DNA of 64,000 nt from Candidatus Bathyarchaeota archaeon (GTDB lineage: Archaea > Thermoproteota > Bathyarchaeia > 40CM-2-53-6), in contig CAWHWX010000001.1 of NCBI GenBank assembly GCA_963833125.1, positions 320,001 to 384,000 of the forward strand, given 5' to 3'. Both the position numbers and the translations under genes were made by a program. Under the pieces are notes generated by a model. That model did no database searches, had not been told where the DNA came from, and was given only the letters and a program-made list of their open reading frames with translations. This document shows positions 1 to 32,853 of the stretch, piece by piece (the stretch's first letter is position 1; every line of letters begins with the position of its first letter).

Positions 1-1
1 A

Positions 2-311: not shown

Positions 312-360
312 TTCGTCGTTCGGTTTGAAGTGTGTATGGGTTTTGGTTTAGTTGGTGTGC
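312..360 (+). repeat. Degenerate copy of dispersed TGG-N6-TGGTG repeat with CGTCGTTCG linker
   Basis: TTCGTCGTTCG...GTGTGTATGG...TGG|TTTAGT|TGGTGTGC. Confidence 0.5.
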
Positions 361-418
361 CGCCTGCGGCGTCGCATGAAGTCTTATTAGGACTAAACAC
401 ACGCTGAGCGCGTTAGGG

Positions 419-862
419 GTGCGGTTTGTGAGGGTCGGAACGGTTTGGGTCAAGTATGTCCTTCTTGTTGCAGTCGTCCTAGCCTTGGCGACAACTATGA
501 TTCCTAACGGGATGTCACTTGCTCCCGCGCAGACCTTCACATGCTCCAGTTTCGTCAGCACATCAACAACCTCTACTACAACGACGACAGTGACAACATC
601 AATTTCGTCTACGCAAGTTCCCGGGTTGAGTGCCGTTTCCACAGTATCTTCATTTCAAACAACGAATACGTCTACCAGTACATCTTGCGATACGCTTTCG
701 GGAACCTTTTCTGAGCTCCTCTCTGACCTTGTTACCGTCGTGATTATTCTCGGAATACCCTTGGCTATTCCTGAATACCCGTTGGGCTTATTCGTACTCG
801 TAATCTTGATCGTGGTTGCGTACCTGTTTATCAAACGTAGGGCGACACGAGAACAGAGCTAG
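419..862 (+). CDS. Ser/Thr-rich secreted protein with PEF-CTERM-like (PEYP) sorting signal
   Basis: N-terminal hydrophobic signal, poly-S/T tract, C-terminal IPEYPLG + TM helix + KRR. Confidence 0.75.
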   Translation: MRFVRVGTVWVKYVLLVAVVLALATTMIPNGMSLAPAQTFTCSSFVSTSTTSTTTTTVTTSISSTQVPGLSAVSTVSSFQTTNTSTSTSCDTLSGTFSELLSDLVTVVIILGIPLAIPEYPLGLFVLVILIVVAYLFIKRRATREQS

Positions 863-951
863 AATCACTTAGACCTAGCGTCAGAATCATCAACCGATTG
901 GTGACAGCCACAAGAATTTTTTGCCCGTGAGGATAACGTTGCCCGTTTTCG

Positions 952-1038
952 GTGTATGTGGTATTAATGAGGCGGCCGTTGGGATTCGGACCGTCGTCGT
1001 TCGTCGTCAGAAAAGTGTGTGTATAGCTGGTGCGCACA
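952..1038 (+). repeat. Two copies of dispersed repeat joined by linker
   Basis: GTGTATGTGG|TATTAA|TGAGGCG (952) and GTGTGTG|TATAGC|TGGTGCGCAC (1015); linker TCGGACCGTCGTCGTTCGTCGTCAGAAAA. Confidence 0.85.
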
Positions 1039-1054
1039 GTCCGGGTCTGGAATT

Positions 1055-1501
1055 CTAGGCTAGATTTTGGTGGGCAATCGTGTGAGAACTCCTGACGGGT
1101 ACGAAGAGTTGTAGTTCGGTTTGACTTCGGTAGAATTCTATGGAAGGTCTTGTCGGGTCAATGTCGTGGACTTTGACCAGTTCTTGATATAATTGGGGGA
1201 GTTGACCGTCGCGGATCTTCTTTTCCCAGTCCAGAATTTTGCGACGAGCGTATATTCCTCCTGGAATCACCCCGGTCTCCAATTGCATCTTACCTGGGTC
1301 GTCGGCGTCGATTCTTGCCACGGACGCGTAGTACTCTTCTCCGTCAGGGGTTTCGTGGAAGACGCCGTAGAATTTTCGACCCTTCAGAGTTGGAAGCTTG
1401 GATTCTAGCAAATCCATGGCCGCCGACGGACCTTTGCCTTTCATGTCTGCTTTGACACGCATGATTGGGATTTCGTTAAGTTCAACATAGGTGTCGTTCA
1501 T
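1055..1501 (-). CDS. GyrI-like small-molecule-binding domain protein
   Basis: 148 aa; KFYGVF..YYASV..IPGGIYAR..RPSIEFY..LFVPV pattern of GyrI-like domains. Confidence 0.75.
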   Translation of the reverse strand: MNDTYVELNEIPIMRVKADMKGKGPSAAMDLLESKLPTLKGRKFYGVFHETPDGEEYYASVARIDADDPGKMQLETGVIPGGIYARRKILDWEKKIRDGQLPQLYQELVKVHDIDPTRPSIEFYRSQTELQLFVPVRSSHTIAHQNLA

Positions 1502-1580
1502 AGAGAACTTCGGCGTGACGTCTGATATTTATGAATTGGAAGATGACTCGTGTCATCTTCTGGTTGCCAGTCATTTTTCT

Positions 1581-1778
1581 GTGGGTGGTATAGCTGGTGC
1601 GTGAAAATGAATTTGAACTGTCGTCGTTCGTCGTAAAGTGTGTGTGTGGTATCGCTGGTGCGAGCGTCGGAAATTGAACCTTCGGTTTTAGTGTGTGGTA
1701 TTAGTGATGCGAGCACCCGAAATTGAACCGTCTGTCAGGCGTAATTTTGCGTGTGTGCGCACCAGCTATGCCAAGCAC
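1581..1778. repeat. Cluster of four repeat copies (three direct, one inverted)
   Basis: Cores TATAGC (1589), TATCGC (1650), TATTAG (1699) on +, CATAGC on - (1751-1778); linkers share AA(A/T)TTGAAC. Confidence 0.9.
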
Positions 1779-1812
1779 GAAATGAATCTCCTGAACAGAT
1801 TTTTTGGTATCA

Positions 1813-2583
1813 TTAAATTCGAGGGGAAACTGTCCAGGTCCGGTAGTCTAGGATGTGGCGGAATCCCATTTTGAGATACACTGGGAATCCGATGGGGCTT
1901 GCCTGCAATGATGAGAGATCGCATCCGTGTTGAAATCCATCTTTCACAGCGAAAGCGCTCATGGCTGCGCCGAATCCTCTACCCCTGAATTCTGGGATGG
2001 TGCTCACGCCGTAGATTCCTGCAACGTTATCGGTTTCGTACAGAATAGAGGTAGCTACCGGCTTACCGCTGCAGATTCCCAGATAGTACGTCAAGCCTTT
2101 CGTTGCAAGGCTCTGAGGCGTAGCTAAACGGTCGAAGAAATTTGGGTCAGACATCTGGAAACCGAGAGCTGCTGCTCGCTCCCAAGACAAGCGTTCGCTT
2201 ACGTCACGAACTTGGCGGATTTCCAAGTCGGAAGGCAGGGGTCGGAGGGTAGCTGCTTCCTTGGGCAAAATCATTTCTGGATCCCTCCTAAACCGCGTGA
2301 CCGGTACGTGCCGAGGTATCTCGTAGAAATCATCTCCAACCGAGGGAGGCACAACGATCTTCCATTCAGACCTTTGCTCAGCAAAGAAGCGCTTCACTCT
2401 CTCCAGAGTCTCAGGCCGCACACCAGCCTTGTCCGATACCAGAGCACAATTCCAGTCATTCAATAGGATAGGACTGCGCATACACATAACCCCCGGAAAA
2501 TACTCAATCGTACCTCCGCTCTCAGCTGCGAAGGCGGATGAAGCAGCGAAGAAATTACGCGTCACACGTTCTTCGGTTGACAT
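1813..2583 (-). CDS. GNAT family N-acetyltransferase
   Basis: AGIYGVSTIPEFRGRGFG acetyl-CoA motif, LQAS..G..VY.KMGF; start set at ATG 2583 to avoid overlap with the upstream gene. Confidence 0.85.
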   Translation of the reverse strand: MSTEERVTRNFFAASSAFAAESGGTIEYFPGVMCMRSPILLNDWNCALVSDKAGVRPETLERVKRFFAEQRSEWKIVVPPSVGDDFYEIPRHVPVTRFRRDPEMILPKEAATLRPLPSDLEIRQVRDVSERLSWERAAALGFQMSDPNFFDRLATPQSLATKGLTYYLGICSGKPVATSILYETDNVAGIYGVSTIPEFRGRGFGAAMSAFAVKDGFQHGCDLSSLQASPIGFPVYLKMGFRHILDYRTWTVSPRI

Positions 2584-2615
2584 AATACCACGAAAAACAG
2601 TACCAGTATCCACCG

Positions 2616-3434
2616 CTACGTGGCGAGTGTTGCTTCTCCGTTTGGTTTGATTTCTATTTGATGCCAAGCCGAGTCATGAGGTTGTCCTCTGAGACTCCTG
2701 ATTCTCAGAAAGTTCTGGGCCTTCTCTTCTTTTTCCATTACTCTGATGTCTATAACTCCGTCCCAATCGGCTTCCATGCGTCGATACACCCATTCGGGAT
2801 GGACTCCGCGAACGAAGCCCTGTAAGGTGATACGGTTCGCTCTCCGCTCGTTTGGATTAACTCTGCTTTCCATCCACTCCACGTATGCTTTCTCGTCGTT
2901 GAATCGCATTTGCGAGGAACACGATTCGACCAATAACAAACTCCATCCGGCCATGTGTGTTTGCCCTACTGTGTCCCTTTCATAGACTTCCGGGCTCAAC
3001 TTTGTCCATTTGAGCCATTCGAGGCTGAGGTCTGAAACCTTCAAAGACCGGACTCTGACTCCCCCATCGATTTGTTCGAAGAGTCCTTCATGCCCTCCTT
3101 CAGTTCTTACACGGCCACCGGTGAGGGTTGCGGAATACCAGTCCTGGACTTCGAGACGTCCTTCCTTCAATGTCGCCGATACATTAATTTCCAAAGCCGA
3201 TAAGGCATCTAAGACATTATTCCTCGATCTTGCCATCGCCAAATAACCAACACTTCTGTTTTCCAGTAGAGTTTTCGCGGCAATAGTCGCGGCGACGGCG
3301 AACCATTGAGACTCAGGATCAAATTCAACGCCAAAGATCGTTGCAGGTTTAATTCCGCCCGGAATAAGTTGAGTTAGAAGAGGAATGTCAACGCGGCCAG
3401 CGGAAGGCAAGTTATACCTGACAAAAGTAGACAT
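2616..3434 (-). CDS. RAD55/KaiC-like RecA-fold protein with degenerate Walker A
   Basis: IPLLTQLIPGGI start, EFDPESQW replacing GxxGxGKT, DGVIDIR..LRIRSLRG..HDS C-terminal KaiC/RAD55 motif. Confidence 0.75.
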   Translation of the reverse strand: MSTFVRYNLPSAGRVDIPLLTQLIPGGIKPATIFGVEFDPESQWFAVAATIAAKTLLENRSVGYLAMARSRNNVLDALSALEINVSATLKEGRLEVQDWYSATLTGGRVRTEGGHEGLFEQIDGGVRVRSLKVSDLSLEWLKWTKLSPEVYERDTVGQTHMAGWSLLLVESCSSQMRFNDEKAYVEWMESRVNPNERRANRITLQGFVRGVHPEWVYRRMEADWDGVIDIRVMEKEEKAQNFLRIRSLRGQPHDSAWHQIEIKPNGEATLAT

Positions 3435-3497
3435 TCAACTAACCAAAAGCATTGACGGTCCAAGTTTTCAGCCAAGTGCGTGTAAGCATGATGTGAG

Positions 3498-4433
3498 TTA
3501 ACCGATAAGTATCTGAGCAAGCTGGTGTGGCTCAATGTTTCCGCCGGTTACGAGAAGCGCTACGTTCTTCCCCTGCAATTCGTCCCGGATTTTTGTGGCG
3601 GCGGCTGTTGAGGCTGCTCCTGATAACTCAGCTACTTGACCAGTAGTTGAGAAGATCGTTCTCACAGCTTCCATCATTTCCGCGTCGCTGACGAGAACGA
3701 CATCATCCAACTTCTCCTTTAGAAAACTGAACGGCAACTCATAGGCCTGTGAAGTAGCCAATCCCTCAGCCTTCGTCTTTACGCCATTAGTGGACGTAAT
3801 CGACCCGCTCTTCCATGACTTGTAAAAGGCTGGTGCACCTTCGGCTTGCACGCCAATCACTCTGATCTTCGGGTCGATGGACTTGTAGACGATACACGCC
3901 GAGGATGCCGCTGACCCGCCTCCGATCGGAGCGATCACAATATCCAAATCGGGCTGTTCTTCGATGACTTCCAAATGCATAGTGGCAACGCCTTCGAAGA
4001 GCAGCGGCTCATTGCTAGCATGGATGTACAGGTACCCATTCTGAGAAGCCAGCTTCTCCGCGTACTCACGTGCCTCATCATAGTAGCTTCCGTGGAAAAG
4101 AAGTTCTGCACCCAAATCCTTGACAGCCTCAGACTTTAGCTGAGGGACGCCGTGTGGCATAACAATCTTGACCTGTACTCCGAATAGCTTGCCTGCATAG
4201 GCTACTGACTGAGCGTGATTACCTGTCGACGCCGTAATGACTGTACGAGATTGGCCTTGCTTCACCAAGTTCTCAATAAAGCGCACACCTCCGCGAACTT
4301 TGAATGCCCGTGTGGGCTGGAGATTCTCCAGTTTGAGGAAGACCTCGCACCCAAGTAGTTTCGAAAGCCCTCTCGGGTGAATCAGAGGGGTCGGCTTCAA
4401 GTAACGATTAACGATTGTTCGTGCGACAAACAC
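3498..4433 (-). CDS. PLP-dependent threonine/serine dehydratase
   Basis: KLENLQPTRAFKVRG, ASTGNHAQ, PIGGGS motifs; true start may lie slightly upstream. Confidence 0.9.
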   Translation of the reverse strand: MFVARTIVNRYLKPTPLIHPRGLSKLLGCEVFLKLENLQPTRAFKVRGGVRFIENLVKQGQSRTVITASTGNHAQSVAYAGKLFGVQVKIVMPHGVPQLKSEAVKDLGAELLFHGSYYDEAREYAEKLASQNGYLYIHASNEPLLFEGVATMHLEVIEEQPDLDIVIAPIGGGSAASSACIVYKSIDPKIRVIGVQAEGAPAFYKSWKSGSITSTNGVKTKAEGLATSQAYELPFSFLKEKLDDVVLVSDAEMMEAVRTIFSTTGQVAELSGAASTAAATKIRDELQGKNVALLVTGGNIEPHQLAQILIG

Positions 4434-4615
4434 ATCGAGCAGACGTGGAATCTGAGATTGCGCCGATATTCATCACGCTCACCTTTCCCGTTGCTAATTT
4501 CCACTCCGATAAGAGCCTTCAACTAAAGAAGCTGTTCATTCGACAAACAAAATCACCGGCTCAGTTTCCAGTATTTTACCACAATCGAACCAAACCCTCG
4601 TGGAGACTTCCTCGG

Positions 4616-5515
4616 TCATGGATGAGGCTCGGGTTCCAGGGGTTTGCCGTAGATGGTCGTGATTGCAGTAGATACTAGTATCAAGAAACCGCCGAACCAT
4701 TGAGATATGGTGAGTTTGTTTCCGAAGAGGGCTAGCGAGAGAAGTACTGAGGTGACCGGTTCGATGAGGCTGATCAATGCAGCTCTTGAGGGACCTATTT
4801 TCGAAATGCCGATGAAGAAAGCAGTTGCTGCGAAAACGGTGCATACGAGTGTTATGGTCAGCACCCAGAACCATCCAGCAACGCTCCAGTTCAAACGGAT
4901 CGAACCGGTCAGTGCTCCGGTTAAGCCAAAGGTTACCGACGCGGCTCCCATCACGTAGAAGGCAGCTACGTCTCCCTTTACCCTTCTAAGAACCTTCGAG
5001 CTGCTTAGAATGTAGATCGTGTATACTATCGATGAAGCAAATGCGAGGAACACGCCGAGGCCGATAGCTGTCCCGAACGGATTTGCAACCAAGACCAAAC
5101 CAATCAATGCTATTACGAAAACTCCTGCGAGACGGCGCGGTACCCGCTCCCATCCTAACAAGAATGCGCCTAACGTAACGAAGACTGGGTAGGTGTAAAG
5201 AAGCAGCGCAACGATTGCAACAGGCGAAAAGAGGAGAGCTGTAAAGTAGAAAGTGGATTGCAGGAAGTAGACCAATGCACCGAGTATAATCAACGCCAAA
5301 AGGTCGGTTCTCTTGGGAAGAACCAGCCTATGGGAAAGGGCGAGAAGTGTTCCCATAATCAGGAATGCGAGAAGGAATCTGACGAAGAGAAGCTCATCAA
5401 CACCAACTCCTTGAGCGTAGGCTAACTTAGCGAAGATGGGCTGGAAGCCAAACGCGACGGCTGACACAAAAACAAGGATTGTTCCTTCGTGATCACTCTT
5501 CATAGGGAGCCACAA
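4616..5515 (-). CDS. DMT/EamA family transporter
   Basis: About 10 TM helices in two EamA repeats; LLYTYPVFV, LIEPV motifs. Confidence 0.9.
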   Translation of the reverse strand: MWLPMKSDHEGTILVFVSAVAFGFQPIFAKLAYAQGVGVDELLFVRFLLAFLIMGTLLALSHRLVLPKRTDLLALIILGALVYFLQSTFYFTALLFSPVAIVALLLYTYPVFVTLGAFLLGWERVPRRLAGVFVIALIGLVLVANPFGTAIGLGVFLAFASSIVYTIYILSSSKVLRRVKGDVAAFYVMGAASVTFGLTGALTGSIRLNWSVAGWFWVLTITLVCTVFAATAFFIGISKIGPSRAALISLIEPVTSVLLSLALFGNKLTISQWFGGFLILVSTAITTIYGKPLEPEPHP

Positions 5516-5530
5516 TAGGTTGATCTGATT

Positions 5531-8196: not shown

Positions 8197-8294
8197 CTGA
8201 AATGGTATACTTGGAGGTTCTCAAATGCCTGGTACATTGAGAACTTTTCAGCGAGATTCAGAGTTTCTGTGGCAATTGTGCATTTCGGTCTTTC

Positions 8295-8314
8295 GCGTGT
8301 GGGTCTGGTGACTG
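8295..8314 (+). repeat. Degenerate repeat copy
   Basis: GCGTGTGG|GTCTGG|TGACTG between convergent genes. Confidence 0.4.
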
Positions 8315-8337
8315 TTACCGGTACGGTTTCGTTTCAA

Positions 8338-9207
8338 TCATCCAATAATCGCGATCATGAGTAGGCCTGTGATCACGCAGGCGAGAGCGACCAGTTGAAG
8401 CCGATTCAACTTCTCACGAAGCAATATCACGGCGGCCGTCACTGTGACGAGCGGATAGGCACTGGATATTGGAGCAACAAGCGACACGAAGCCCATGCTA
8501 AGCGCAAATGTGAGAGCGAGTGTGCCAGAGACATTAAGGGCAAGGCCAGTCGCTCCGAAAACCCAAGCAGTCCATGACGGCTTCCCAACATTCGAATGTC
8601 CTTGTCCGCTTCGAAACCACATGTAGGCTAAGGGCACCGTGACTGCTGAGATTACGTAAAAGCCGAAAACATTTCCCACACCAATTTTGCTGACCGTAAT
8701 TTTTGCGGTCAGACTCCATAAACCCCAGAGTGCGAACGCCAACAGCGCGAAGAACAAGGATCTTCTCGGGATGGAATACCGTGAATGCGGATTCCGCTCG
8801 TAGGACAAAGCTACGATGCCACAGATTATAGCAGCAACTCCAACTAATTCCGCACCCGTCAGAGACTCTGAAAGGAACGCAAGCGCGCCGATGACAGTCA
8901 AGCTAGGATAGGCGGCTGATATGGTTCCCACGATTGCGACTTGACCGTCCACCACTGATTCTAAGAAGCAGATGTAAGCAGCTGTCCCGACAAAAGCTGA
9001 AGCCGCTGCAAGAGCACCGTATTCTAAGTCAACAACTGCGTTGTTGTGCCAAAAGAGGAAACCTGCAAAATACGCCATGCCCTCAATAACCACTACAAGC
9101 CCGGCTATGCGCGCTACTCCAAGCCTCGGAGTGCTTAGCTTGGCAAAGACATTACCGAAACCCCATAGAAACGCGGTCAGTATCGCAAAAACGAACCAGT
9201 ACTCCAT
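8338..9207 (-). CDS. DMT/EamA family transporter
   Basis: Two EamA repeats, ISAAYP and APISSAYP motifs; likely start MEYWF. Confidence 0.85.
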   Translation of the reverse strand: MEYWFVFAILTAFLWGFGNVFAKLSTPRLGVARIAGLVVVIEGMAYFAGFLFWHNNAVVDLEYGALAAASAFVGTAAYICFLESVVDGQVAIVGTISAAYPSLTVIGALAFLSESLTGAELVGVAAIICGIVALSYERNPHSRYSIPRRSLFFALLAFALWGLWSLTAKITVSKIGVGNVFGFYVISAVTVPLAYMWFRSGQGHSNVGKPSWTAWVFGATGLALNVSGTLALTFALSMGFVSLVAPISSAYPLVTVTAAVILLREKLNRLQLVALACVITGLLMIAIIG

Positions 9208-9474
9208 GAAACCATACCGTCCGCGACTCGTTCCAGGCACACTCCACTCGGACTCCTTAGACTTTAGTGCTTCCGGCCGAGAGACTACTACCATCGTCGA
9301 TTTTCATTTGGAATCGGCTGGATCCTTCACTCCGTTGTTGCTGTTGGTGTAACTCAGCTGTTCTAAGGTTGTGAATTGTTATAGTCTAAGAGTAGAGTTT
9401 ACCAGCCGCTTACGTAAATACTGTAACGGCCAGTATCCTATACTTCTAACCTGCCGTAAAAGGAGCATTCACAT

Positions 9475-9530
9475 GTGTGTGGTATAGCTGGTGCGCGCAC
9501 ACACACACACTTATTGAAGGAACGACGATC
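9475..9530 (+). repeat. Repeat copy with CA tail and inverted linker
   Basis: GTGTGTGG|TATAGC|TGGTGCGCGCACACACACACAC followed by GAAGGAACGACGA. Confidence 0.9.
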
Positions 9531-9567
9531 CAAAATATGACGGAGCACGAGGTGCGTATTCGGTGAG

Positions 9568-10035
9568 TTATCGATGTCTTCTATAGTCCTTCTCTAGCGC
9601 GGCCGCATACTTTGTCCAGACGTCATGAATAGATTTCAGATAATCTGATTTCGACGGATAGTCTCCGATTTTCCATCGTTCAATAAACTTCATGTCCAGT
9701 CTAGTCTTCGCGGAACCGAGTTTCGATAATCTGTATTCTCCCTCTTCGTCATCTTCGTCTCCTCTGGAGTCTAGATGCCAGGACCTGGGTGGGTGTAGAG
9801 TGACTATGTTCACGGCGGTCCGGGTTTTTCCACCGCTCTTGTAGCGAATTGTATAGATCACTCTTTCTTTCGTCTTCTCGAGTATCTTCCTCCTGTTCCC
9901 TGAACCAGTTATCTTCGGGTCGGTGTCACGGAAGTCTGTACACCACCGGTAAGCGAATTTTAATGGCGCGTTGAGCACCTTGGTTGCATGGTAGGTTCTT
10001 ACGTCAGGTTTCTTCGCAGACACGTCGCAAGCCAC
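9568..10035 (-). CDS. SRPBCC/START-like fold protein
   Basis: LNAPLKFAYRWCTDF start, beta-sheet core, C-terminal W-containing helix. Confidence 0.6.
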   Translation of the reverse strand: MACDVSAKKPDVRTYHATKVLNAPLKFAYRWCTDFRDTDPKITGSGNRRKILEKTKERVIYTIRYKSGGKTRTAVNIVTLHPPRSWHLDSRGDEDDEEGEYRLSKLGSAKTRLDMKFIERWKIGDYPSKSDYLKSIHDVWTKYAAALEKDYRRHR

Positions 10036-10121
10036 CGGTGTTAACCCGTTTCCGTTGTGTCGTTATAAATCGCTTACGGAATTTCCCATCCTCAAATCTT
10101 GGCAGACGTTGAGTTAGCTTA

Positions 10122-10212
10122 GTGTGTGCGTGGTATGCTGGTGCGCACACACACTTTTCTGACGACGAACGACGGTCCGATTTTGGACGCCCTCACCAGT
10201 GGATACACGCAC
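10122..10212. repeat. Inverted pair of repeat copies with linker
   Basis: GTGTGTGCGTG|GTATGC|TGGTGCGCACACACAC, then TTTTCTGACGACGAACGACGGTCCGA (near reverse complement of 986-1014), then a degenerate - strand copy. Confidence 0.85.
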
Positions 10213-10288
10213 AAAAGAAAAACGACGGCAGTGGATCTCTAATACCGTAAGCAACTCTCAAATACTCCAATCATGCGAAGTCTGATTT

Positions 10289-10738
10289 ATGACGCAGAAG
10301 TCTGATGTTATCAACCTTCAACTACTAATTCGTAAATCTCCTGAATCGGTTCGTGCTTGGTGGACCGATCTTCCGGAAGACTATCAAGCGAAAGATCCGC
10401 GGGAACAGCCCTACCGAATCGTGACTACCCGTAGGTTATCAAACGGGCGCGAGCTTCGCACGTATTGGCGAATGCCGGATGGTTCAGCATTCGATTTCCA
10501 AGAGATACTGACTTTGAAACCGGATGGGAGTTGGACCTTTGAAATCCCAAACGGCATGGGCTTCCGCATACTCGACGAATTTCGAGCCGAATCAGTTCCA
10601 ACCGGAACTAAACTCACCATTCACAGTACTCTGACACCGCTAGACGCTTCCGCTGCCAGCCGTATTTCGGCACAGGAGGAGCTAATGGCCGAAGGTTGGA
10701 AGGGCGCGGCAGAAATTTGCGAACATGACTCACCTTGA
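10289..10738 (+). CDS. SRPBCC/START-like fold protein
   Basis: IRKSPESVRAWWTD start, GTKLTI, C-terminal GW helix. Confidence 0.6.
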   Translation: MTQKSDVINLQLLIRKSPESVRAWWTDLPEDYQAKDPREQPYRIVTTRRLSNGRELRTYWRMPDGSAFDFQEILTLKPDGSWTFEIPNGMGFRILDEFRAESVPTGTKLTIHSTLTPLDASAASRISAQEELMAEGWKGAAEICEHDSP

Positions 10739-10805
10739 TCAGCTATCAGTTAACATTAACAACAGGTTAATGACGCCGGCCACTTAGATCGACGCAATCG
10801 CGCTG

Positions 10806-11543
10806 ATGAGCTTGTCGAGTTCTTTACGCGCAAAGATTGTCGAAACAGGAAATCTCGATTTAGCGGTTCTATCTGAGATTTTCGGCCGCATTCCTTACGG
10901 AAGAGTGATATTAGCTCTGTATGATCCTGATAGCCAATTTAACTCATTGATGGTCAACGTCGCAGCTGAGCACCTGAAGATCGGGCGTGATCTCCTCTAT
11001 CTTGCCTCATCTAGGCCCACAGTCGAAGTCAGGCAGCAATTCAATGGTCTTGGAGTGAACGTGGCGGAATACGAGGCGAAAGATAATGCGGTTCTCTTTG
11101 ATGATTATTCCACGCAAATGGGCGTGAAGTCACCTGAGAGATATCACTCCACGACTTCGAATCTCAACGAACGGTCCATTACCATAGGTCAGTCGGCACC
11201 CCAATGGCCGGCGGGAACGTTGGTTATTGTAGAGTCCTTCTCGAGCATGGCGGTTAATGAGGAGAACGTCTTTGCGAAGTTCTCGAAACGGGCCGTGGGA
11301 GTATGGAGAGCTCGAGGAGCAGTCATGATAGTTGGTCTGGCAGTCGATATACATACGTTACAATTCTATCAGGAAATGAAACTGCTATGCGATGGAGTGT
11401 TCGAGGTAAGACTAGTTGAACATCACGCAGAGATGATCAATTCGATCAGGTCCAGGTCAATGAAGGGGCAGATGTCAGACTCCAGATGGCGACGGATTCT
11501 ATTCGACAATAAGATGAAAGCTTCACTCCAATTCCTCAAATAG
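10806..11543 (+). CDS. RAD55/KaiC-like RecA-fold protein with degenerate Walker A
   Basis: LYDPDSQF at P-loop position; LCDGVFEVR..RSMKGQMSDSRW. Confidence 0.75.
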   Translation: MSLSSSLRAKIVETGNLDLAVLSEIFGRIPYGRVILALYDPDSQFNSLMVNVAAEHLKIGRDLLYLASSRPTVEVRQQFNGLGVNVAEYEAKDNAVLFDDYSTQMGVKSPERYHSTTSNLNERSITIGQSAPQWPAGTLVIVESFSSMAVNEENVFAKFSKRAVGVWRARGAVMIVGLAVDIHTLQFYQEMKLLCDGVFEVRLVEHHAEMINSIRSRSMKGQMSDSRWRRILFDNKMKASLQFLK

Positions 11544-11572
11544 CGGAAAGAGCAATCTTACAAAGTTTTGCA

Positions 11573-11620
11573 CCGTCGTCGTTCGTTTTCATTTGTGTGT
11601 GGCATTAGTGGTGCGCACCC
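11573..11620 (+). repeat. Repeat copy with linker
   Basis: CCGTCGTCGTTCG...TGTGTGTGG|CATTAG|TGGTGCGCAC. Confidence 0.9.
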
Positions 11621-11695
11621 CACCAGAAAATGCTGAAACAATTCGTTCGGACTTTTCGAATGATGTACGTGATTTTATGTTTTCCTGTGTGCTCA

Positions 11696-12037
11696 TTATG
11701 GACGGGGTTGTTTTAGTTCAACGAATAAGACATGAGTGTTTGTCTCTCCGATATTTTCGCCGATATGCGATTGTTCATCGTTCCAGACGACTTCTCCTCC
11801 CTTAATATCCACAACTACAGACTTACCATTATCGAAAGTAAGTTTCCTCTTGAAAGCACTCAGCATATAGAGCACAGCGTCCGGGTGATGATGCAGCTTT
11901 GTCTTATCGCCAGGTTTGTCTTTGTAATCGATAACTCTTACACGGTCATTTTCGAAAATGACCTTATACTTATCCGGATCAGTTGTTACGGCGTGCGGTA
12001 AAATATTCCTTGCTGCTGACATAACATAAAAAACCAC
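11696..12037 (-). CDS. Small cupin-domain protein
   Basis: FENDRVRV..PGDKT..HHHPD..H.GENIG..VLFVELK. Confidence 0.85.
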   Translation of the reverse strand: MVFYVMSAARNILPHAVTTDPDKYKVIFENDRVRVIDYKDKPGDKTKLHHHPDAVLYMLSAFKRKLTFDNGKSVVVDIKGGEVVWNDEQSHIGENIGETNTHVLFVELKQPRP

Positions 12038-12113
12038 ATACGTACACTAAAACCTTTATTGAGTCCAAAGTGACGGCCTCGCATATCATCGGCTTTTTTT
12101 CGGTTGATTTTTA

Positions 12114-12147
12114 GTGTGTGTGGGTATGCTGGTGCGCACACACACAC
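12114..12147 (+). repeat. Repeat copy forming a 9-bp hairpin
   Basis: GTGTGTGTGG|GTATGC|TGGTGCGCACACACACAC. Confidence 0.9.
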
Positions 12148-12183
12148 GAAAACGGGATCGACGGTGGAACGATGGAGTCGTAG

Positions 12184-12732
12184 TTAGACTTGCCTTGGAT
12201 TAGAGGTTCTGCGTCGGATAATTCCGTACACGATTGCAGTTAGAAACACTAGGATGGCCAGACCGTATGGGTATTCTCCGATTGAGGATAAACATGTGGA
12301 AACAGTGGTCAGAGCGACGGTGGCGGTACTCGTGACGGTGGTTATCGCCTGCTCCAAGACATTCACGAAGCTCGACGCCAGAATAAGCCCGTCAGAGAAT
12401 TGAATCGTCTCTACACAATGTACCCCAATTGGGTATCCAGAAGTAGAGATTGCTATCGGACCAATGTTACCCGAATTGTCAACAAAGGCCTTGTCCGTAA
12501 AAATATTGTTTAGAACGGACCCTGTACAGACTCCGGCGATGTCCGACCAGACCCTAACCGCAACTTCATCAGGCGCCTGGATTGTGTATTCGCCGCCGGA
12601 GACTTGGAAGGTATCCCCTTGAATGACCGTGTTGGGGGTAACGTTGATCGTTTGGACGGCATATACCTTTCCAGCATTAAGAAAAACCAGAATGATTACG
12701 ACTAGGGCTATTGTGGCTTGATTTCTAACCAA
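12184..12732 (-). CDS. Secreted Ig-like protein with PEF-CTERM-like (GEYP) sorting signal
   Basis: Signal peptide, beta-rich body, Thr-rich linker, IGEYPYG + TM + RRR. Confidence 0.8.
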   Translation of the reverse strand: MVRNQATIALVVIILVFLNAGKVYAVQTINVTPNTVIQGDTFQVSGGEYTIQAPDEVAVRVWSDIAGVCTGSVLNNIFTDKAFVDNSGNIGPIAISTSGYPIGVHCVETIQFSDGLILASSFVNVLEQAITTVTSTATVALTTVSTCLSSIGEYPYGLAILVFLTAIVYGIIRRRTSNPRQV

Positions 12733-12892
12733 AAGCGAAAACCGAGCGAGCCGTCACCGACAGAGGCAATATAACACTTTTGCGTGATGAGGATCTTCTT
12801 GACTAATCTTGATTCCCATTTTTTCTTGATGGTGCTAACCAGCCTGTCCACAGACACAACAGAATCTGGTTTTTCATCGTCCTCTTTTGGTG

Positions 12893-12924
12893 TTGTGTGT
12901 GTGCACCAGCATACCCACACACAC
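12893..12924 (-). repeat. Repeat copy, inverted partner of 12114 copy
   Basis: Reverse complement GTGTGTGTGG|GTATGC|TGGTGCACACACAC; first 22 nt identical to the 12114 copy. Confidence 0.9.
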
Positions 12925-13055
12925 TTTTGCGCCGTATGAACGAAACAAGTTATTTGACTTGGGCCGAAAGGCGAACTTGAGAAGTGTCTAGGTGTATCGC
13001 ACAAGAACCTTAAACCCTACAATCACAGAATGGCGTTGGTTCAGGGAGTCGCGAT

Positions 13056-13911
13056 TTGAGGCATGCCATGATCGAGGTGCTGTTGACGATCGCCCTTTTC
13101 CTGTTTTTGATTAATGCTCGGCCTGCATATGCCTTTGCGACCCTAGTTCAACAAAGCAACTTCGGTTGTTCTTGCAATAGTGTTAGTGGCTCCCCTCCCA
13201 CACTGCGCATGTTTCTCTCCTTCTCTCCGGCACTGTGACGGCCGGGGACGTGTTGGTTGTCGGGTTGGCATTCTCTCATCTAGGGAGTCCTTTCCTCATT
13301 GCGTGTGGGTCTCCTATGGTGACGGTTGTCTGTGTGACGGATGCCCATGGCTCACAGTTCACGCAAGCCGTAGCGACGGGGGCGACGGGTAGTTCAGCTG
13401 TGCTCATTTATACGGCTACCATTCCACCGTGTGGAAGTTGCATCCCCTCAGATGAGTTTACTGTAACATTCTTGCGCGTCGCACTTTCATGGATGTGTAC
13501 GCGTATGAAGTGTCTGGCGTAAGCACCGTCGGCCTCGCAACCGGCACGGGTTCAGGGTCCGGAACGATTGTTTCCACATCACCGGTCAGCTTCACAGCGG
13601 GTGCCTTTCTTCTCGGATTCAATATCCATGATTCCGGTGCGTCGGTTACCGCTGGGTCGGGGTTTACACTCAACAATGACCTCCTCGGGATCTCAGCCGC
13701 CGAGTATGCTGACCCGGTCTCTTCGCCAACAACCTTCCCAGCCATCTTAAGCGGCAGCGTGAACTGGGCTGAGGCAGGAATAGCTTTGAATCCGGCACTT
13801 GTTCCTCCAATATCTGAGTATCCTGTGGGGCTACCCTTACTCGCTCTCCTAGCTACGGTCGCCTACGGTGTGGTAAGACGCAGAACTTGTGACAGTCCAA
13901 AGAAGATGTGA
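13056..13911 (+). CDS. Secreted surface protein with PEF-CTERM-like (SEYP) signal, split by two frameshifts
   Basis: ORFs 13056-13238, 13235-13522 and 13489-13911 join into signal peptide + beta-rich domain + ISEYPVG-TM-RRR. Confidence 0.7.
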
Positions 13912-13931
13912 TGACTCATCCTTCAGTTCAA

Positions 13932-14017
13932 GTGTGTGTGGGTCTAATGGTGCGCTTACCAACCGCGGAGAACTTACACAAGCGAAGCCTAGAGACTTTT
14001 CATCCTTTCACACACAC
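13932..14017 (+). repeat. Repeat copy plus distal CACACACAC
   Basis: GTGTGTGTGG|GTCTAA|TGGTGCG at 13932-13954; CACACACAC at 14009-14017. Confidence 0.9.
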
Positions 14018-14043
14018 AAAAATAATTGATTCTCTCGCAGAGT

Positions 14044-14991
14044 CTAGAACTGATATGTCGTACCGACGCTGTTTTGGATGAATGCGCCTGGTGCTGTCCG
14101 CATTATTTCATATACCGCTTTCAATCCTGTACAGTGGCATGGAACGAGGACGCGAGGCTTGAGCGCCGTTAGCTCTTCAATGGTCTTTGGGATTATCGGT
14201 TCAAAGATTCCTCCTGTCAGATGCATTCCGCCTATTACTGCATAGATTGTGTCTTGTCCAGTCAGATCTTTCGCATAATTGATTGTGTTAATGATTCCGG
14301 AATGACCGCAGCCTGTGATGACGACGAGCCCCTTGTCTTTCACATTTAAGACCAGAGCCTGGTCGTCTTGGATTAGGGGATCGTTTTCCATTTTTCCGTC
14401 GATTTCCGCGTAATGAATTGGGAACCCCTTCTCGAATTCATTGATCCTCGGAATTTCCCCTGTGACAAGAATTCTACCATCCAACCGCGGGCTGGGACCA
14501 CTGTCTTCTACGATTTCGTAACCCGCATCTGTCAAGAGCGCCTTGCTTGGAGGGGGAAGCGGCAACGTTCTTCCATCGGGGAATTTTACCATCCTGTTCC
14601 TGAAAGCGTACGGGTGCAAGAGTAACGGCATCTTTCTCGCAGCCGGCATCTTTCGCTTTATGTTTAGAAGTCCACCTGCATGGTCTATGTGGCCGTGGCT
14701 TGAAACAACTGTTTCACAATGGGATAAGTCGAAATCGAGGGCTTCTACGTTATGTACGACGGCAAAGGGGTCTAGTCCGGAATCGAATAGAAGACTACGT
14801 TTCCTTCCGTCGAGTTCCAGAGTGACAAGCGCTGAAAAGCCATGCTCTGCAATCAGCGGCCTTTCAAACCAATCATTTCCCATCATTTTGGGTCTCTTAG
14901 CCACATCGGTTGTTGCGAGTAGAACATCGACCGTGTTGTCCACTAAGCAGGTGACCTCTGCTTTTTCTACTTCTTTCAGGCTAACTGGCAT
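14044..14991 (-). CDS. MBL-fold metallo-hydrolase (MJ0301-like family)
   Basis: AEHGFS, SHGHIDHAGG, DDQAL, GCGHSG, GGMHL, HCTG motifs; likely start MPVSL. Confidence 0.9.
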   Translation of the reverse strand: MPVSLKEVEKAEVTCLVDNTVDVLLATTDVAKRPKMMGNDWFERPLIAEHGFSALVTLELDGRKRSLLFDSGLDPFAVVHNVEALDFDLSHCETVVSSHGHIDHAGGLLNIKRKMPAARKMPLLLHPYAFRNRMVKFPDGRTLPLPPPSKALLTDAGYEIVEDSGPSPRLDGRILVTGEIPRINEFEKGFPIHYAEIDGKMENDPLIQDDQALVLNVKDKGLVVITGCGHSGIINTINYAKDLTGQDTIYAVIGGMHLTGGIFEPIIPKTIEELTALKPRVLVPCHCTGLKAVYEIMRTAPGAFIQNSVGTTYQF

Positions 14992-15029
14992 GACTAAAAT
15001 TAGCGTAGAATGATTAATTTGATTTTTGT

Positions 15030-15074
15030 GTGTGTGTGGGTCTAATGGTGCGAGCGAGGCAAATTCAACCGTCA
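15030..15074 (+). repeat. Repeat copy identical (23 nt) to 13932 copy
   Basis: GTGTGTGTGGGTCTAATGGTGCG, then linker-like AAATTCAACCGTC. Confidence 0.9.
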
Positions 15075-27416: not shown

Positions 27417-27434
27417 TCTGAGTTCGATAGGAAG

Positions 27435-29488: not shown

Positions 29489-29731
29489 TTTAACCCCTAA
29501 ATTCAGATTTATGAGGCGAATGTTAGGCTTAATCCTAAAAGTTTGCTTCGACCCTCCCGAACCTCCCGTTCGGATTTCTCCAGCCGTTCAGCCACCTCGT
29601 CGAGTTCGGCTAGGTACTGGATCTCAAATCACCGATTGCTCGCAGAAATCTAGACGTATGGCAAAGCTACGCTAACCTGGTCTACCGTAGCGGTTTAATG
29701 GTAGTCCAGACTGAGTTCAAATTCAGTTGCC

Positions 29732-29754
29732 CGCACCACTAGACCCACACACAC
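29732..29754 (-). repeat. Repeat copy
   Basis: Reverse complement GTGTGTGTGG|GTCTAG|TGGTGCG. Confidence 0.9.
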
Positions 29755-29791
29755 TGAACGACCCGCCGGAAGACTGCCCTCGACTAATTCT

Positions 29792-30127
29792 TCAAGTGTT
29801 CAACGTCCATCCCATTAGATCTCTTACAAGTGTGATCTGTTCGCGTATTACGTCCACAAGCTTCTTCACTGGTTGTAACGCTGCGAGGTATGCGCCTTGC
29901 GACCCGTAAGTTGTTGCAATAAGCTCTTCATGCTGCCGGTTATAATGCTCGCAATGAATGAACAGGTTTCGCAATGCTCTAAATTGGATAGGTTTTAGCT
30001 GAAACAGAAGTCCACTCGACTTTGCGACTTCCCATGAATCAAGAGGGATGTACGGAAGCTTATCGGAGTCAAGTTCGTGAAACACTTGATCCATCACATC
30101 AACCTCTTCTCTCAGTAACAAAAGCAA
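29792..30127 (-). CDS. Hypothetical helical protein (start uncertain)
   Basis: 111-aa ORF directly downstream of the nuclease-like gene. Confidence 0.5.
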   Translation of the reverse strand: MLLLLREEVDVMDQVFHELDSDKLPYIPLDSWEVAKSSGLLFQLKPIQFRALRNLFIHCEHYNRQHEELIATTYGSQGAYLAALQPVKKLVDVIREQITLVRDLMGWTLNT

Positions 30128-30132
30128 CTTGC

Positions 30133-30726
30133 CTAGGTCGCCTTCCTGTTTCTCCCACTTCCGTTGAGCGGCGGGTATGCGATAAGTAACACGAATTGAG
30201 TGGGATTTAGCGAAATCTGTTCGAAGAGACCCTCGTAGCCACAGACTGGTTTATCGCAACGGTTCGGTGCAACAAGCTCTGGGGTATACTCGGTTCTGCA
30301 ACGAGGGCATCTAACCATACGCTTTCCTGACCACGCAATCGTCGCGAATCCAGCATTGGCATAGATTGGTGCCCAACTTTCCGCGTCGAGTTGAGGAATG
30401 ACAACACTAACAGTGTCAGTTGGGTGGCTTCTCTTGTACTTTTTGAGTTGTCTTAGTGTTCCTCCGATATCATATTCGTGAATCTCCCCAACCCGCAAAA
30501 CCTTGACGTGCGTCTTTATCTCGAATCTTAGTCTATGATTCGAGGTCGTGGCTGAAACATCGGGCCAGCCTTCCCCAGAAGGATCTTCCAGATCGAAGCC
30601 CAAGAGATCTTCCCGCACCAGTTCTTTTGTGATTGTTCTTAGACCACCATCCAGAACAAACGTGCGAGCAACATCATCCTGAAGAGTCACTGACCGGACA
30701 CTTCCTACTCCTTTGCAATGGATCAC
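30133..30726 (-). CDS. Putative PD-(D/E)XK nuclease with C-terminal zinc finger
   Basis: WPDV...FEIKT...QLKKY motif order; CPRC...CDKPVC. Confidence 0.6.
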   Translation of the reverse strand: MIHCKGVGSVRSVTLQDDVARTFVLDGGLRTITKELVREDLLGFDLEDPSGEGWPDVSATTSNHRLRFEIKTHVKVLRVGEIHEYDIGGTLRQLKKYKRSHPTDTVSVVIPQLDAESWAPIYANAGFATIAWSGKRMVRCPRCRTEYTPELVAPNRCDKPVCGYEGLFEQISLNPTQFVLLIAYPPLNGSGRNRKAT

Positions 30727-30759
30727 GTCTGGGAGACATTATGTGATCTCCACACTGTT

Positions 30760-31566
30760 CTAGGTTTTGGTTATTGGAATGCCAAAGTCGGCAAAAGTCT
30801 TCTGGATCTCAGAATTGGCCAGACTTACTGCTATCCCGTATAGACTTGGTATCTTTATCCAAATTTCTTGGCCGTTCTTCTCCAAATGCCTTTGACGAAC
30901 TGGCATGGGTTGAAAGCGTGTGCAAATAGCATGAACATTTCCAGTCGATTGAGCGATAATAGGTCCACCGCTATTTCCGTAGTTCAAAGCCTTGTCAAGC
31001 ACGTATACCTTTGTATCCGCCGCGGACATCACCATTCTTGACTTCTCGAAAGTTGAAGAAACTATTGCAGATGTAACTCGCGGGGAATGCTCAACTATTC
31101 CGACTGTTGCGCCCGGCATTTCGAATGATTTTGCCATCGACAATGGGTACCCAAATGAGTATACGGGCTCTCCCTCCTCCAAGTCGCGCACTGAAGTGAG
31201 TATGTAGGGAAACTCAGTTTTTCCTTGTAGCCAAGCCTTGTTGGAGTTCTTTGCGAAATCAACTTTTATTAGCGCAAAATCATTTTTCGAATCTACATGT
31301 TTTAGCTCAACGTACTGACACATGTCTCCGGGTCTCCCTTGCCCTGGTCGAGATTCTTTCATCAACCAAGCCTGGTTGACATCATCTCGAACTTTTGCTG
31401 ACTCACCTTCGCCATGCATTACGACATGTGCAGCCGTAGCAAACCAGCCGTCACTTGACACGAAGAAACCTGTTCCTGCAGGTGTTGGCAGACCTTTGTT
31501 CAAATCGCTGGGAAGATCGATAGAGAACGTGGCAGTTTGTGTTCGACTAAGGGTTTTCCTAATCAT
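30760..31566 (-). CDS. Trypsin-like (S1) serine protease, no signal peptide
   Basis: GTGFF, TAAHV, DFALI, GYP, GNSGGP catalytic triad motifs. Confidence 0.9.
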   Translation of the reverse strand: MIRKTLSRTQTATFSIDLPSDLNKGLPTPAGTGFFVSSDGWFATAAHVVMHGEGESAKVRDDVNQAWLMKESRPGQGRPGDMCQYVELKHVDSKNDFALIKVDFAKNSNKAWLQGKTEFPYILTSVRDLEEGEPVYSFGYPLSMAKSFEMPGATVGIVEHSPRVTSAIVSSTFEKSRMVMSAADTKVYVLDKALNYGNSGGPIIAQSTGNVHAICTRFQPMPVRQRHLEKNGQEIWIKIPSLYGIAVSLANSEIQKTFADFGIPITKT

Positions 31567-31757
31567 CGATTGTACCTTCTATCCTTGCAGCGACCTTACG
31601 ATACACTCGAAAACTTTTTCGACCTTTGGCGTTTTGTCGGAGATAATGAAGCGTACTCTTGCCAATGCCCCGTTGTTTGGCATGAGATCCAGTGAGCGAG
31701 AATCTTAGCGCGCATTCCAAGATCCGCATTTCGTACTAGCCTTGGTGCAGGATAGTC
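31559..31757 (-). pseudogene. Remnant of the C-terminal HTH of a casposase/solo-type Cas1
   Basis: Across two frameshifts: DYPAPRLVRNADLGMRAKILA/LTGSHAKQRGIGKSTLHYLRQNAKG/SFRVYRKVAARI; recognised by recall of the family, not by search. Confidence 0.6.
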
Positions 31758-31822
31758 CGCACTACAATTTCAACACGCCGAACAGTAGCGCGTCACGGCC
31801 GGCGGCTGCGAAGAGTGGTGCA

Positions 31823-31844
31823 GGGTGTGGGTATTCATGGTTTG
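31823..31844 (+). repeat. Degenerate repeat copy just upstream of the cas1-like remnant
   Basis: GGGTGTGG|GTATTCA|TGGTTTG (7-nt core). Confidence 0.35.
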
Positions 31845-31953
31845 AGGTTTGTAAGTTTATGGCGAGTTGGGGATGTTTATGAAATCAATATGCTTTCGTT
31901 TCTTGGAACTTGGATAGACATAAGAAGAATCAATGGTAACCTTCCGGCCTGCA

Positions 31954-32795
31954 ATGACCCGAAGAACAAAGGTCCCGAAACAGATCGAAGCAAGCGTTCT
32001 CTTTGAGAATGATCACACATGCTGCATTTGCAGAGAACCGCGGGAAAGACGTAATAACACATCATATAGACGGAGACAGCAGTAACAATGATCCGACGAA
32101 CCTAGCCGTTCTCTGTCACGATTGTCATAGCAGAGTCACAGGTACACACGGCCTTGGCCGGAAATACTCTTCAATAGAGGTCGGGAAGTACAAACGGGAT
32201 TGGGAGTTCATTGTACGAAAGAAGCGGCACCTTATCATTGAACCGTATCGGAAACTTGAGAAATCTGAAGTGAGATCCACTAGATTCGAGATCAAAAGAA
32301 ATCTGTACGAGCTAGCCGACGGAGAATGGCAAACGAGCCAAAGAGATACTGGAGCTACTAGACATTTATTACATCTATGAGGGCGAGTCGGATTATGTTT
32401 TGGATACGCTAAACGTTCTGGTACCACTCACTCACGGCGCCACAAACCGCCTCGCAGCGGAGTACGCTCTTCACTATTTTTGGCATCTCCCCGGACCAGA
32501 GTACACCCAGATCACAAAGAAAGACATGCGAATTATAGGCAAGGCCATACAATTTCTTACTTGGATGGGGGAATACAGTGCTGAATTCGGCGAAGAAGGC
32601 ACGACAGTACGGGCGGCCTTGAGAGCTCTTCACTCACTATTCGAGACGGTCAGCTCCTACCACGTGAAGAAGCTGGAGACCAGAATTAAGAAATCATATC
32701 GGTCAATCAGGAAGGCAATGCTGGCGTCCGAATATCCGAAAAGAGAAAAGAAGTCGATCATAGCGACCGCAGATTCTTACTTGAGAAGAACATAG
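31954..32795 (+). CDS. HNH endonuclease domain fused to a helical C-terminal region, two frameshifts
   Basis: MTRRTKVPKQIEASVLFENDHTCCICRE / HHIDGDSSNNDPTNLAVLCHDCH. Confidence 0.75.
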
Positions 32796-32830
32796 ATGGA
32801 ATAGAAGTTCGTCACGGGCGGCGGGGGCGG

Positions 32831-32853
32831 CGCACCACTAGACCCACACACAC
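32831..32853 (-). repeat. Repeat copy identical to 29732 copy
   Basis: CGCACCACTAGACCCACACACAC, 23/23 match. Confidence 0.9.

Follow-up and report, generated by a model that had tools for sequence, protein, structure and literature searches.

Contig CAWHWX010000001.1 of the assembly GCA_963833125.1 (Candidatus Bathyarchaeota archaeon) contains, between positions 320,001 and 384,000, a stretch of 64,000 nucleotides, hereafter the window, in which conserved tracts alternate with variable islands. The islands are divided into small gene modules by copies of a short intergenic repeat, here called S, which consists of two conserved blocks, CGCACCA and CCACACAC, flanking a variable spacer (N6) of fixed length. 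S is the reverse complement of the motif GTGTGTGTGG-N6-TGGTGCG, in which form it was noticed in an earlier note based on the letters of the window. Copies of S occupy intergenic DNA and variable islands, conserved copies stand at island edges, the modules between copies have moved among genomes, and homology breaks in or beside S. By its sequence, S is best read as a descendant of the 3′ end of a tRNA gene.

The whole assembly to which the window belongs (G000) is a metagenome-assembled genome (MAG) of 3.07 Mb, distributed over 39 contigs, with a completeness of 87.8% and a contamination of 7%. All genomes compared with it are also MAGs; related genomes are non-independent samples and, with the closest relatives only ~87% identical, single events lie below resolution. 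Genes were called by open reading frame (ORF) heuristics. The window and G000 were scanned for the motif with up to three mismatches, and a set of 61 copies in G000 comprises the matches to S with at most one mismatch.

Distribution and anatomy of the repeat S

Comparison of the window with its two closest relatives, G016 and G019, which covers it up to position 60000, reveals four tracts that are collinear at ~78-88% identity with small gaps (4618-8208, 15137-20860, 22294-29754, and 36345-60000) and, around them, blocks that are missing or replaced in both relatives (-2181 to 4617, 8207-15140, 20861-22294, and 29755-36345; negative positions precede the window). The variable blocks make up 31% of the window and hold 12 of its 13 motif matches; the remaining one, at 29732, is situated at the edge of a block, on its conserved side. 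The matches (952, 1579, 1640, 1689, 9473, 11593, 12114, 12835(-), 12902(-), 13932, 15030, 29732(-), and 32831(-)) compare with a mean of 0.06 and a maximum of 1 in 100 dinucleotide-preserving shuffles of the window. Twelve of them correspond to positions among the ~18 copies listed in the earlier note; seven other positions of that list (~344, 1015, 1751(-), 8295, 10122, ~10195(-), and 22207) can be seen in the sequence only as partial or degenerate copies, that at 1015 being short of three bases of the left arm and that at 8295 reading CGCGTGTGGGTCTGGTGACTG. The match at 12835(-), which is outside the list, is probably a degenerate or chance copy. The note had further described the copies as intergenic and absent from 36.5-64 kb, and rightly so: none of the 13 matches is contained in a long ORF, three overlap only ORF starts or short ORFs (the latter probably spurious), and that tract contains no match at ≤3 mismatches. 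The association with accessory/core boundaries, which it had put forward for checking, is borne out by the position of the matches in and at the edge of the variable blocks, and its view that the repeat partitions accessory DNA agrees with the one- and two-gene modules, the conserved/variable boundaries, and the homology ends in or beside S that are described below.

The genome-wide scan, likewise suggested in the note, gave 72 matches in G000, including 27 on contig C1. Within the 61-copy set, 54 copies are intergenic, compared with an ORF coverage of 81% of the genome. The copies are clustered: 72% have another copy within 3 kb, as against 13.5% (maximum 33%) in 500 trials of random intergenic placement, and the median distance to a neighbour is 924 bp, as against ~20 kb under such placement. 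When related genomes were scanned with a shortened pattern at ≤1 mismatch, S was present in 22 of 22 same-genus genomes, 18 of which hold at least nine copies (maximum 70), while the reversed pattern, used as a control, gave 0-1 matches per genome. Outside the genus its occurrence is patchy, with 20 copies in G034 from another family, 12 in G036 versus none in its congener G028, and 0-2 in the other 15 genomes. Exact matches in a public genome collection fall in 80 loci, 46 of which, including all 11 loci with two or more matches, belong to Bathyarchaeia/Bathyarchaeota MAGs; the other 34 are single matches in assorted bacteria, about the number estimated for chance. Among public sequencing runs, at most 17% of the words sampled from window positions 8000-16000 were found in any one.

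The two arms of S are not reverse complements of each other. The spacer has the fixed 6-bp length and the variable sequence that the earlier note ascribed to it but is not free, showing a weak bias with low information per position, an nTAGAC-type preference, and a dominance of GTCTAA/GTCTAG-type cores. Beyond the conserved right arm, most copies run into a tRNA-like stretch or into (CA)n. Directly upstream, (GT)n is found in 24/61 copies, where it forms a quasi-palindrome with the (CA)n block, and a GGCGGGGGCGG run lies upstream of 3/61; 19/61 have neither of these nor the T-loop-like GTTCAAAT considered below. A longer unit also recurs, (CA)n-TTT-ACGACGAACGACG-GGTTCAAAT-...-CGCACCA-N6-C, which is encountered as tandem empty units at 49-61 bp spacing as well, for example at 1579-1711, where each mini-unit combines the motif with ACGACGAACGACG and, on the other strand, with a T-loop-like GGTTCAA(A/T)T. 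A hairpin was considered as the defining feature of S and rejected, as the (GT)n arm is limited to the copies just mentioned and folding is weak in nine of ten stretches tested (z-scores of -1.5 to +0.8, and -3.9 in the tenth); one of the ten folds better than all of its own shuffles.

S and the 3′ end of tRNA-X

The tRNA genes of G000 encode their own CCA. The block CGCACCA is identical to the last seven encoded bases of one of them, here called tRNA-X: three acceptor bases, the discriminator A, and CCA. tRNA-X is intron-bearing and ends in ...CGGCCGCACCA, and in G000 an N6 and CCACACACAC come directly after it. It is located on contigs C18, C6, and C29, with a paralogue on C16. The gene is present in 21/23 genomes, all 24 loci end in CCGCACCA, and in 12/24 of them S was flagged by a script directly at the 3′ end. 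The DNA beyond tRNA-X varies from genome to genome: on C18 and C6 of G000 a second unit follows 52 nt downstream, and then modules, while C18 and C29 have the tRNA and S in common and differ from the end of CCACACACAC onwards, possibly because the MAG contains variants from two strains.

The resemblance extends upstream of the seven bases. The T-loop-like GTTCAAAT (≤1 mismatch) precedes 16/61 copies, always at the same offset, which places its G at tRNA position 53, whereas the genome-wide background frequency of this pattern is 4.7e-4 per position. The boundary copy at 29732 reads on the + strand as a T-loop-like GAGTTCAAAT followed by CGCACCA-CTAGAC-CCACACACAC; after the copy at 15030 there is a diverged T-loop-like stretch outside the 16 copies in register. 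The possibility that S copies are foldable tRNA or RNA genes was rejected. Rfam detected no tRNA in positions 1-37000 of the window at E≤1, a weak sR51 match elsewhere being the only hit, and ARAGORN found none at 29400-29900 or in the loci L133 and L135. Since the partner strand of the T-stem is missing, the copies are fragments rather than tRNAs. The descent of S from the 3′ end of tRNA-X, as judged from this base-by-base correspondence, can be counted among the firm results. Missed by the earlier note, it is the key to the anatomy of S.

Several observations concern the tRNA genes as such. tRNA-X at C18:125837-125996 (and likewise on C6 and C29) has several introns along with the encoded CCA, and ARAGORN misses all three copies even in intron mode. 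The paralogue at C16:463652-463744 was called Ala(TGC) by ARAGORN, which is doubtful because its acceptor stem has G3:C70. In total, ARAGORN without intron mode reports seven tRNA genes in G000 and Rfam 19.

Modules, breakpoints and cargo

The copy at 29732, together with ~100 nt upstream of it, is conserved in G000, G016, and G019. Homology of the three genomes ends at the last base of S, and beyond it each has different genes and further co-oriented S copies. In the more distant genomes G014, G018, and G013 this place is devoid of both S and an island. A comparable situation is found between G013 and G014 (88-93% identical locally), each of which carries a copy with the T-loop at a distance of ~100 nt downstream from a genuine tRNA gene; the two sequences separate immediately behind CGCAC, and G013 continues into a 16.6-kb S-rich island that is absent there in G014. 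The 6.9-kb island at 8207-15140 interrupts, as a clean insertion, the gap between two conserved genes that converge, with a direct AAATGG at both flanks. Its empty site in G019 reads ...CTGAAATGG|AATGTTAGTGCG, without S, and the empty form also occurs in one metagenome contig (joint 8199->15137 with a shorter side of 69, run X3).

Individual modules are shared between genomes at identities above those of the surrounding DNA. Positions 12137-12910 of the window are 96.8% identical to G019:C4 and positions 12894-13887 are 93.2% identical to G016:C2, and C1:124691-125389 of G000 is 95.6% identical to G016:C2, whereas syntenic DNA of G000 and these two genomes is 83-88% identical. Similarly, C28:139920-140510 and its counterpart in G018 are 91.6% identical against 68-74% in syntenic DNA. 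Modules of G000 are also shared with several named public Bathyarchaeia loci at 85-95% identity, and in two peat metagenomes the module 12918-14121 is covered 14-27x while the flanking modules are covered 0-6x.

In an all-vs-all comparison of loci, 10/27 downstream-side homology ends lie between -7 and +1 relative to the initial C of CGCACCA; an even spread over the 101 scored positions would give ~2.4 of 27. Individual breaks were located behind CGC or CGCAC, at the second base of N6, and where (CA)n has its edge. Homologous modules can carry different spacers (TTAATA versus CTAGAC at 95.6% module identity), indicating that N6 is stably tied to neither neighbour, and the S core can be flipped relative to the same module. 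Among 14 adjacent -+ pairs, three inverted pairs have an identical rare N6 and 31-33-bp ends and enclose modules of 0.55-0.85 kb, with one ORF each where checked; no target-site duplication was seen at the three pairs, and the G019 copy of one such module has direct sites instead. Joints at motif positions in metagenome contigs (9508->15024, 12146->13930, and others) were considered as traces of excision and rejected: as their shorter side amounts to only 21-26 letters, they represent cross-matches between copies. The only solid metagenome joints are that of the empty 6.9-kb site and an internal skip of 361 nt (side 250).

The cargo most often met in S-bounded modules is a KaiC/MEDS-like protein family (~240 aa) that lacks a Walker A motif (P-loop). 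G000 has 18 paralogues with a median pairwise identity of 33%, 12 of which lie within 1.5 kb of S, compared with 11% of all genes, and of 146 ORFs near S in related MAGs, 15 belong to PF06745, more than to any other family. The best solved relative is PH0284 (2dr3; E=0.0025), and PADLOC gave no match for the KaiC-like cargo. A role of these proteins as the recombination enzyme was rejected, since the lack of Walker A and the median identity of 33% mark them as cargo rather than a transposase-like gene. The same 146 ORFs include three TATA-binding-protein paralogues and two Cas1 proteins (best E 1e-51). The features of the window are listed in Table 1.

Table 1. S copies, islands and KaiC/MEDS-like genes of the window (G000; positions counted from the first letter of the window).
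Feature	Position	Strand	Remarks
G000-specific block, in-window part	1..4617		begins 2181 bp before window start; syntenic place in G016 and G019 without block
S copy, 3 mismatches to the motif	952..974	+	partial copy at 1015-1035
Three tandem mini-units (1579, 1640, 1689)	1579..1711	+	49-61 bp spacing; none with cargo
Partial S copy GCGCACCAGCTATGCCAAGC	1757..1776	-	faces the tandem units
KaiC/MEDS-like cargo gene	2616..3434	-	
6.9-kb island, ~7 modules	8207..15140		orthologous site in G016 and G019 without island
S copy, then (CA)6	9473..9508	+	quasi-palindromic type
Inverted doublet, ~90 bp	10122..10212		motif variant, (CA)n, ACGACGAACGACG, diverged S on opposite strand
KaiC/MEDS-like cargo gene	10806..11543	+	
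S copy	11593..11615	+	convergent gap
One-gene module	12114..12924		ORF 12184-12732(-), 182 aa; bounded by 31-33-bp inverted copies with the same rare N6 GTATGC
S copy, 0 mismatches	13932..13954	+	convergent gap
S copy, 0 mismatches	15030..15075	+	88 bp inside the right end of the island
Boundary S copy	29632..29754	-	~100-nt conserved non-coding block, then S
Variable island	29755..36345		replaced by unrelated sequence of ~2 kb (G016) and >4.7 kb (G019), both carrying additional S copies of their own
S copy, 0 mismatches	32831..32853	-	homology of module 32830-33720 with G019:C10 starts at S
KaiC/MEDS-like cargo gene	32874..33395	-	

Some further observations were made in and near the islands. 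The non-coding block of ~100 nt at 29632-29731 is strongly conserved in three species, with many invariant runs; the structure predicted by RNAalifold from the orthologues of 29632-29756 in these species is weak, at -13 kcal/mol and with hardly any contribution from covariation. In the block differing from G019, an Acyl_transf_3 gene is read as two overlapping ORFs, 20924-21733 and 21516-22190 (+), which suggests a frameshift or an assembly error. A small ORF at 32003-32380 (+) in the island 29755-36345 has a weak HNH-endonuclease match (E ~1e-4). Upstream of the window, C1:313080-317819 (window -6920 to -2181) contains two conserved blocks in the opposite order relative to G019 and G016, a local rearrangement adjoining the G000-specific block.

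Origin of S and exchange of modules

The explanation we favour, and regard as about evenly poised between right and wrong, is that S is a dispersed junction repeat derived from attachment (att) sites and serves as a recombination joint for modules of one or two genes. Integration at the 3′ part of tRNA genes is a known event in archaea, as described in a paper on Thaumarchaeota (PMC6563490) and in a review on archaeal tyrosine recombinases (PMC8371274), and S copies would have originated as att duplications left by integrative elements whose target was the tRNA-X 3′ end. The tRNA register of the copies, the presence of S at the intact tRNA-X end, and the islands starting there argue for such an origin. 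Today, the copies would act mainly as portable homology of 20-35 bp for copy-to-copy recombination, for which RadA-type recombination, template switching, or a recombinase acting in trans are candidate routes, and at S joints modules of one or two genes would be gained, lost, inverted, and exchanged between genomes. The scattered breakpoints and the random orientation favour the action of copies as short homology, while the two strongly conserved blocks with a fixed spacer mean that a sequence-specific enzyme acting in trans is still a candidate. The data do not agree with a linked integrase that exchanges DNA at a single, fixed point of cleavage.

No enzyme goes with S. A phmmer search with the nine integrase-like ORFs of G000 revealed no integrase-like ORF in 127 loci around S, and no integrase family is among the 25 commonest families of the 146 ORFs near S. 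Tyrosine recombinases (PF00589) were found in 25/41 genomes but were not detected at E≤1e-5 in six S-bearing genomes, namely the same-genus G018, G006, G007, G012, and G020 as well as G034; these are 67-98% complete, and G018, at 98%, has 36 S copies. The Y1 family (PF01797), which includes the REP-associated tyrosine transposases (RAYT; REP, repetitive extragenic palindrome), occurs in 1/41 genomes, which is not G000; PF00665 (rve) gave no match in G000, G002, and G016; PF01609 (DDE_Tnp_1) occurs in 4/22 genomes of the genus and has no match in G000; and PF07282, PF00239, and PF01867 have no match in G000. In the 41-genome survey, none of PF00589, PF01797, PF00665, and PF01609 co-varies with S. 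The nearest integrases lie 3-6 kb from arrays, in G011:C5 and G017:C4, and were considered as the S enzyme, yet no link emerged, as an integrase of this type also occurs on G016:C2, where the surrounding 18 kb are free of S. The earlier note was correct that the window holds no cognate enzyme, and the co-varying recombinase that it proposed to look for did not appear, PF00589 being undetected in five of 22 same-genus genomes and in G034.

These negative results weigh against the att-derived joint, and several other points add to them. Upstream-side homology ends are scattered, with 5/18 within -7 to +5, and some module ends are separated from S by 40-77 nt. Co-orientation would be expected from serial integration at a single att site, whereas adjacent copies less than 4 kb apart have the same orientation in 29 of 60 pairs and the opposite one in 31. 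The empty site of the 6.9-kb island has no S, and thus arrays also enter S-free places. Conserved blocks around an N6 of fixed length look more like protein recognition than plain homology. Finally, the gene calls are heuristic, and the central genome is a MAG of the completeness and contamination given above.

Some features of the recombinase and transposase complement stand on their own. Six tyrosine-recombinase-like ORFs lie in a row at C16:556-13451 of G000, the first three of which (415, 408, and 337 aa) are adjacent, as in a recombinase-in-trio element. Tyrosine recombinases of G000 are also encoded at C22:67-918 and C28:133207-134208. G018, assembled in 5 contigs, either has a very divergent Xer-type recombinase or belongs to a lineage with none. 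G000 (87.8% complete) has no match to rve, DDE_Tnp_1, Y1_Tnp, the TnpB domain, resolvase, or Cas1 and appears to be poor in classical transposases despite its many islands.

The protein-recognition aspect is taken up by a reading in which a dedicated site-specific recombinase, whose gene lies elsewhere and whose family may be an unrecognised one, acts on S, and single-gene cassettes are excised and inserted as in integrons, with crossover in or next to CGCACCA. A site in nearly every island gap, modules of one or two genes, conserved blocks around a spacer of fixed length, island-edge sites that are kept while the content beyond turns over, the peak of downstream-side homology ends at the first base of CGCACCA, tandem empty units adjoining sites, and the patchiness outside the genus (G034, and G036 versus G028) would all suit such a system. 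The breakpoints, however, are spread over CGCACCA, N6, and (CA)n, the orientation of sites is random, empty units of 49-61 bp would be, by reasoning only, too short for plausible circles, and neither the four families of the 41-genome survey nor the three additional ones sought in G000 supply the recombinase. We consider this reading possible though rather doubtful, and its full form, an integron-like system in the genus and some other genera of the order that uses a mimic of the tRNA acceptor as its site and a trans recombinase outside the tested families, is put forward just as tentatively. A self-multiplying REP-, REPIN-, or MITE-like element (REPIN, REP doublet forming a hairpin; MITE, miniature inverted-repeat transposable element), which prefers intergenic island DNA and marks module boundaries only incidentally, appears unlikely. 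S is indeed intergenic, clustered, genus-specific, and found in both orientations; the (GT)n...(CA)n quasi-palindromes, together with inverted doublets of ~90-95 bp that look like REPINs and the three module-flanking pairs that resemble 31-33-bp terminal inverted repeats ending TG...CA, are what such an element might leave. Nevertheless, these three pairs show no target-site duplication, most copies lack a hairpin and fold weakly, Y1/RAYT is limited to one genome, G000 is without a match to rve, DDE_Tnp_1, or the TnpB domain, and no case was found of S alone being present or absent between conserved genes. The REP-like alternative of the earlier note is only partly borne out, the hairpin-making (GT)n arm being limited to 24/61 copies and a RAYT-type gene to 1/41 genomes.

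It is highly improbable that S is a regulatory or architectural element, i.e., part of a promoter, a terminator, an insulator, or a site for a chromatin protein, which travels with accessory genes. Such a role would agree with the orientation of S in tandem gaps, where 16 copies share the direction of the genes and 6 oppose it, with the 34/52 copies that point toward a co-oriented downstream gene, and with CCA-N6-CCA direct half-sites about one helical turn apart, as read by eye. The distance from S to the next start codon, on the other hand, is broad (48 to 1254 nt), convergent (12/52) and divergent (18/52) gaps are occupied alike, S is absent from the collinear tract, and its patchy spread across genera fits a host regulator poorly; a consensus scan found no terminator-like site at S, and roles as a terminator or promoter were rejected on this and on the broad gene distances.

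Returning to the favoured att-derived joint, S resembles the tRNA att sites described in PMC6563490 and PMC8371274 in being a tRNA 3′ end, in some copies with the T-loop, in having, at tRNA-X, one copy inside an intact intron-bearing tRNA gene with variable DNA just beyond, and in forming arrays. It differs in several respects: there are 50-70 copies per genome rather than a few, modules consist of one or two genes and some units (49-61 bp) are empty, no integrase lies inside or beside the modules, both orientations are equal, flanking copies are not consistently direct repeats (29/60 pairs in the same orientation), most copies are far from tRNA genes, and a conserved (CA)n block lies outside the tRNA. 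In copy number, single-gene grain, the (CA)n block, the use of both orientations, and the lack of a linked integrase, S exceeds known tRNA-att events.

Other systems share part of this pattern. Integron arrays and clusters of attC sites lacking integron-integrases (CALINs), the subject of 10.1101/2022.02.06.479319 and PMC9024848, likewise consist of small, mostly single-gene, repeat-bounded modules of diverse accessory function and turn over at fixed places with no integrase needed nearby; unlike integrons, S arrays have no IntI, their sites are not co-oriented overall, and breakpoints lie at several positions. Co-orientation is absent overall and seen beyond the boundary copy in three genomes, and single-ORF modules are present. 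attC sites carry the cores RYYYAAC/GTTRRRY, and S is not an imperfect palindrome of this type. Genes bounded by XerC/D sites form the pdif modules of Acinetobacter plasmids. S shares with them gene modules bounded by short conserved sites in both orientations; its arms, however, do not form inverted repeats, crossover is not confined to N6, and a Xer-type enzyme was not detected in several S-bearing genomes. The Xer/dif-like architecture to which the earlier note had likened the repeat is thus not tenable, TGGTGCG being the reverse complement of a tRNA 3′ end including CCA, nor is a reading of N6 as the single place of crossover, given that breaks also occur in CGCACCA and at (CA)n edges. Like REP/REPIN sequences, the subject of PMC3116915 and PMC2817692, S is short, intergenic, clustered, and genus-specific, with singlets and inverted doublets; in contrast to them, its hairpin is not universal, RAYT is found in 1/41 genomes, it is tRNA-derived, and its copy number is about ten times lower, with copies confined to islands. 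A literature search, with supplements outside its scope, found no published description of the S repeat or of any Bathyarchaeia cassette system.

Bathyarchaeia are abundant and uncultured, little is known of their gene exchange, and the genus considered here is common in peat and soil. S provides a sequence handle on their accessory genome, as it marks islands and delimits single-gene units, and it reveals the passage of these units between species with an identity of only ~70-88% in the DNA that they share. Should a dedicated enzyme act on S, the result would be a cassette system that is based on tRNA-end mimicry and falls outside the integron paradigm, by which single accessory genes, many of them KaiC-like without a P-loop, are traded between species. 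If there is no such enzyme, leftover att sites would have become portable homology that keeps the gene pool modular.

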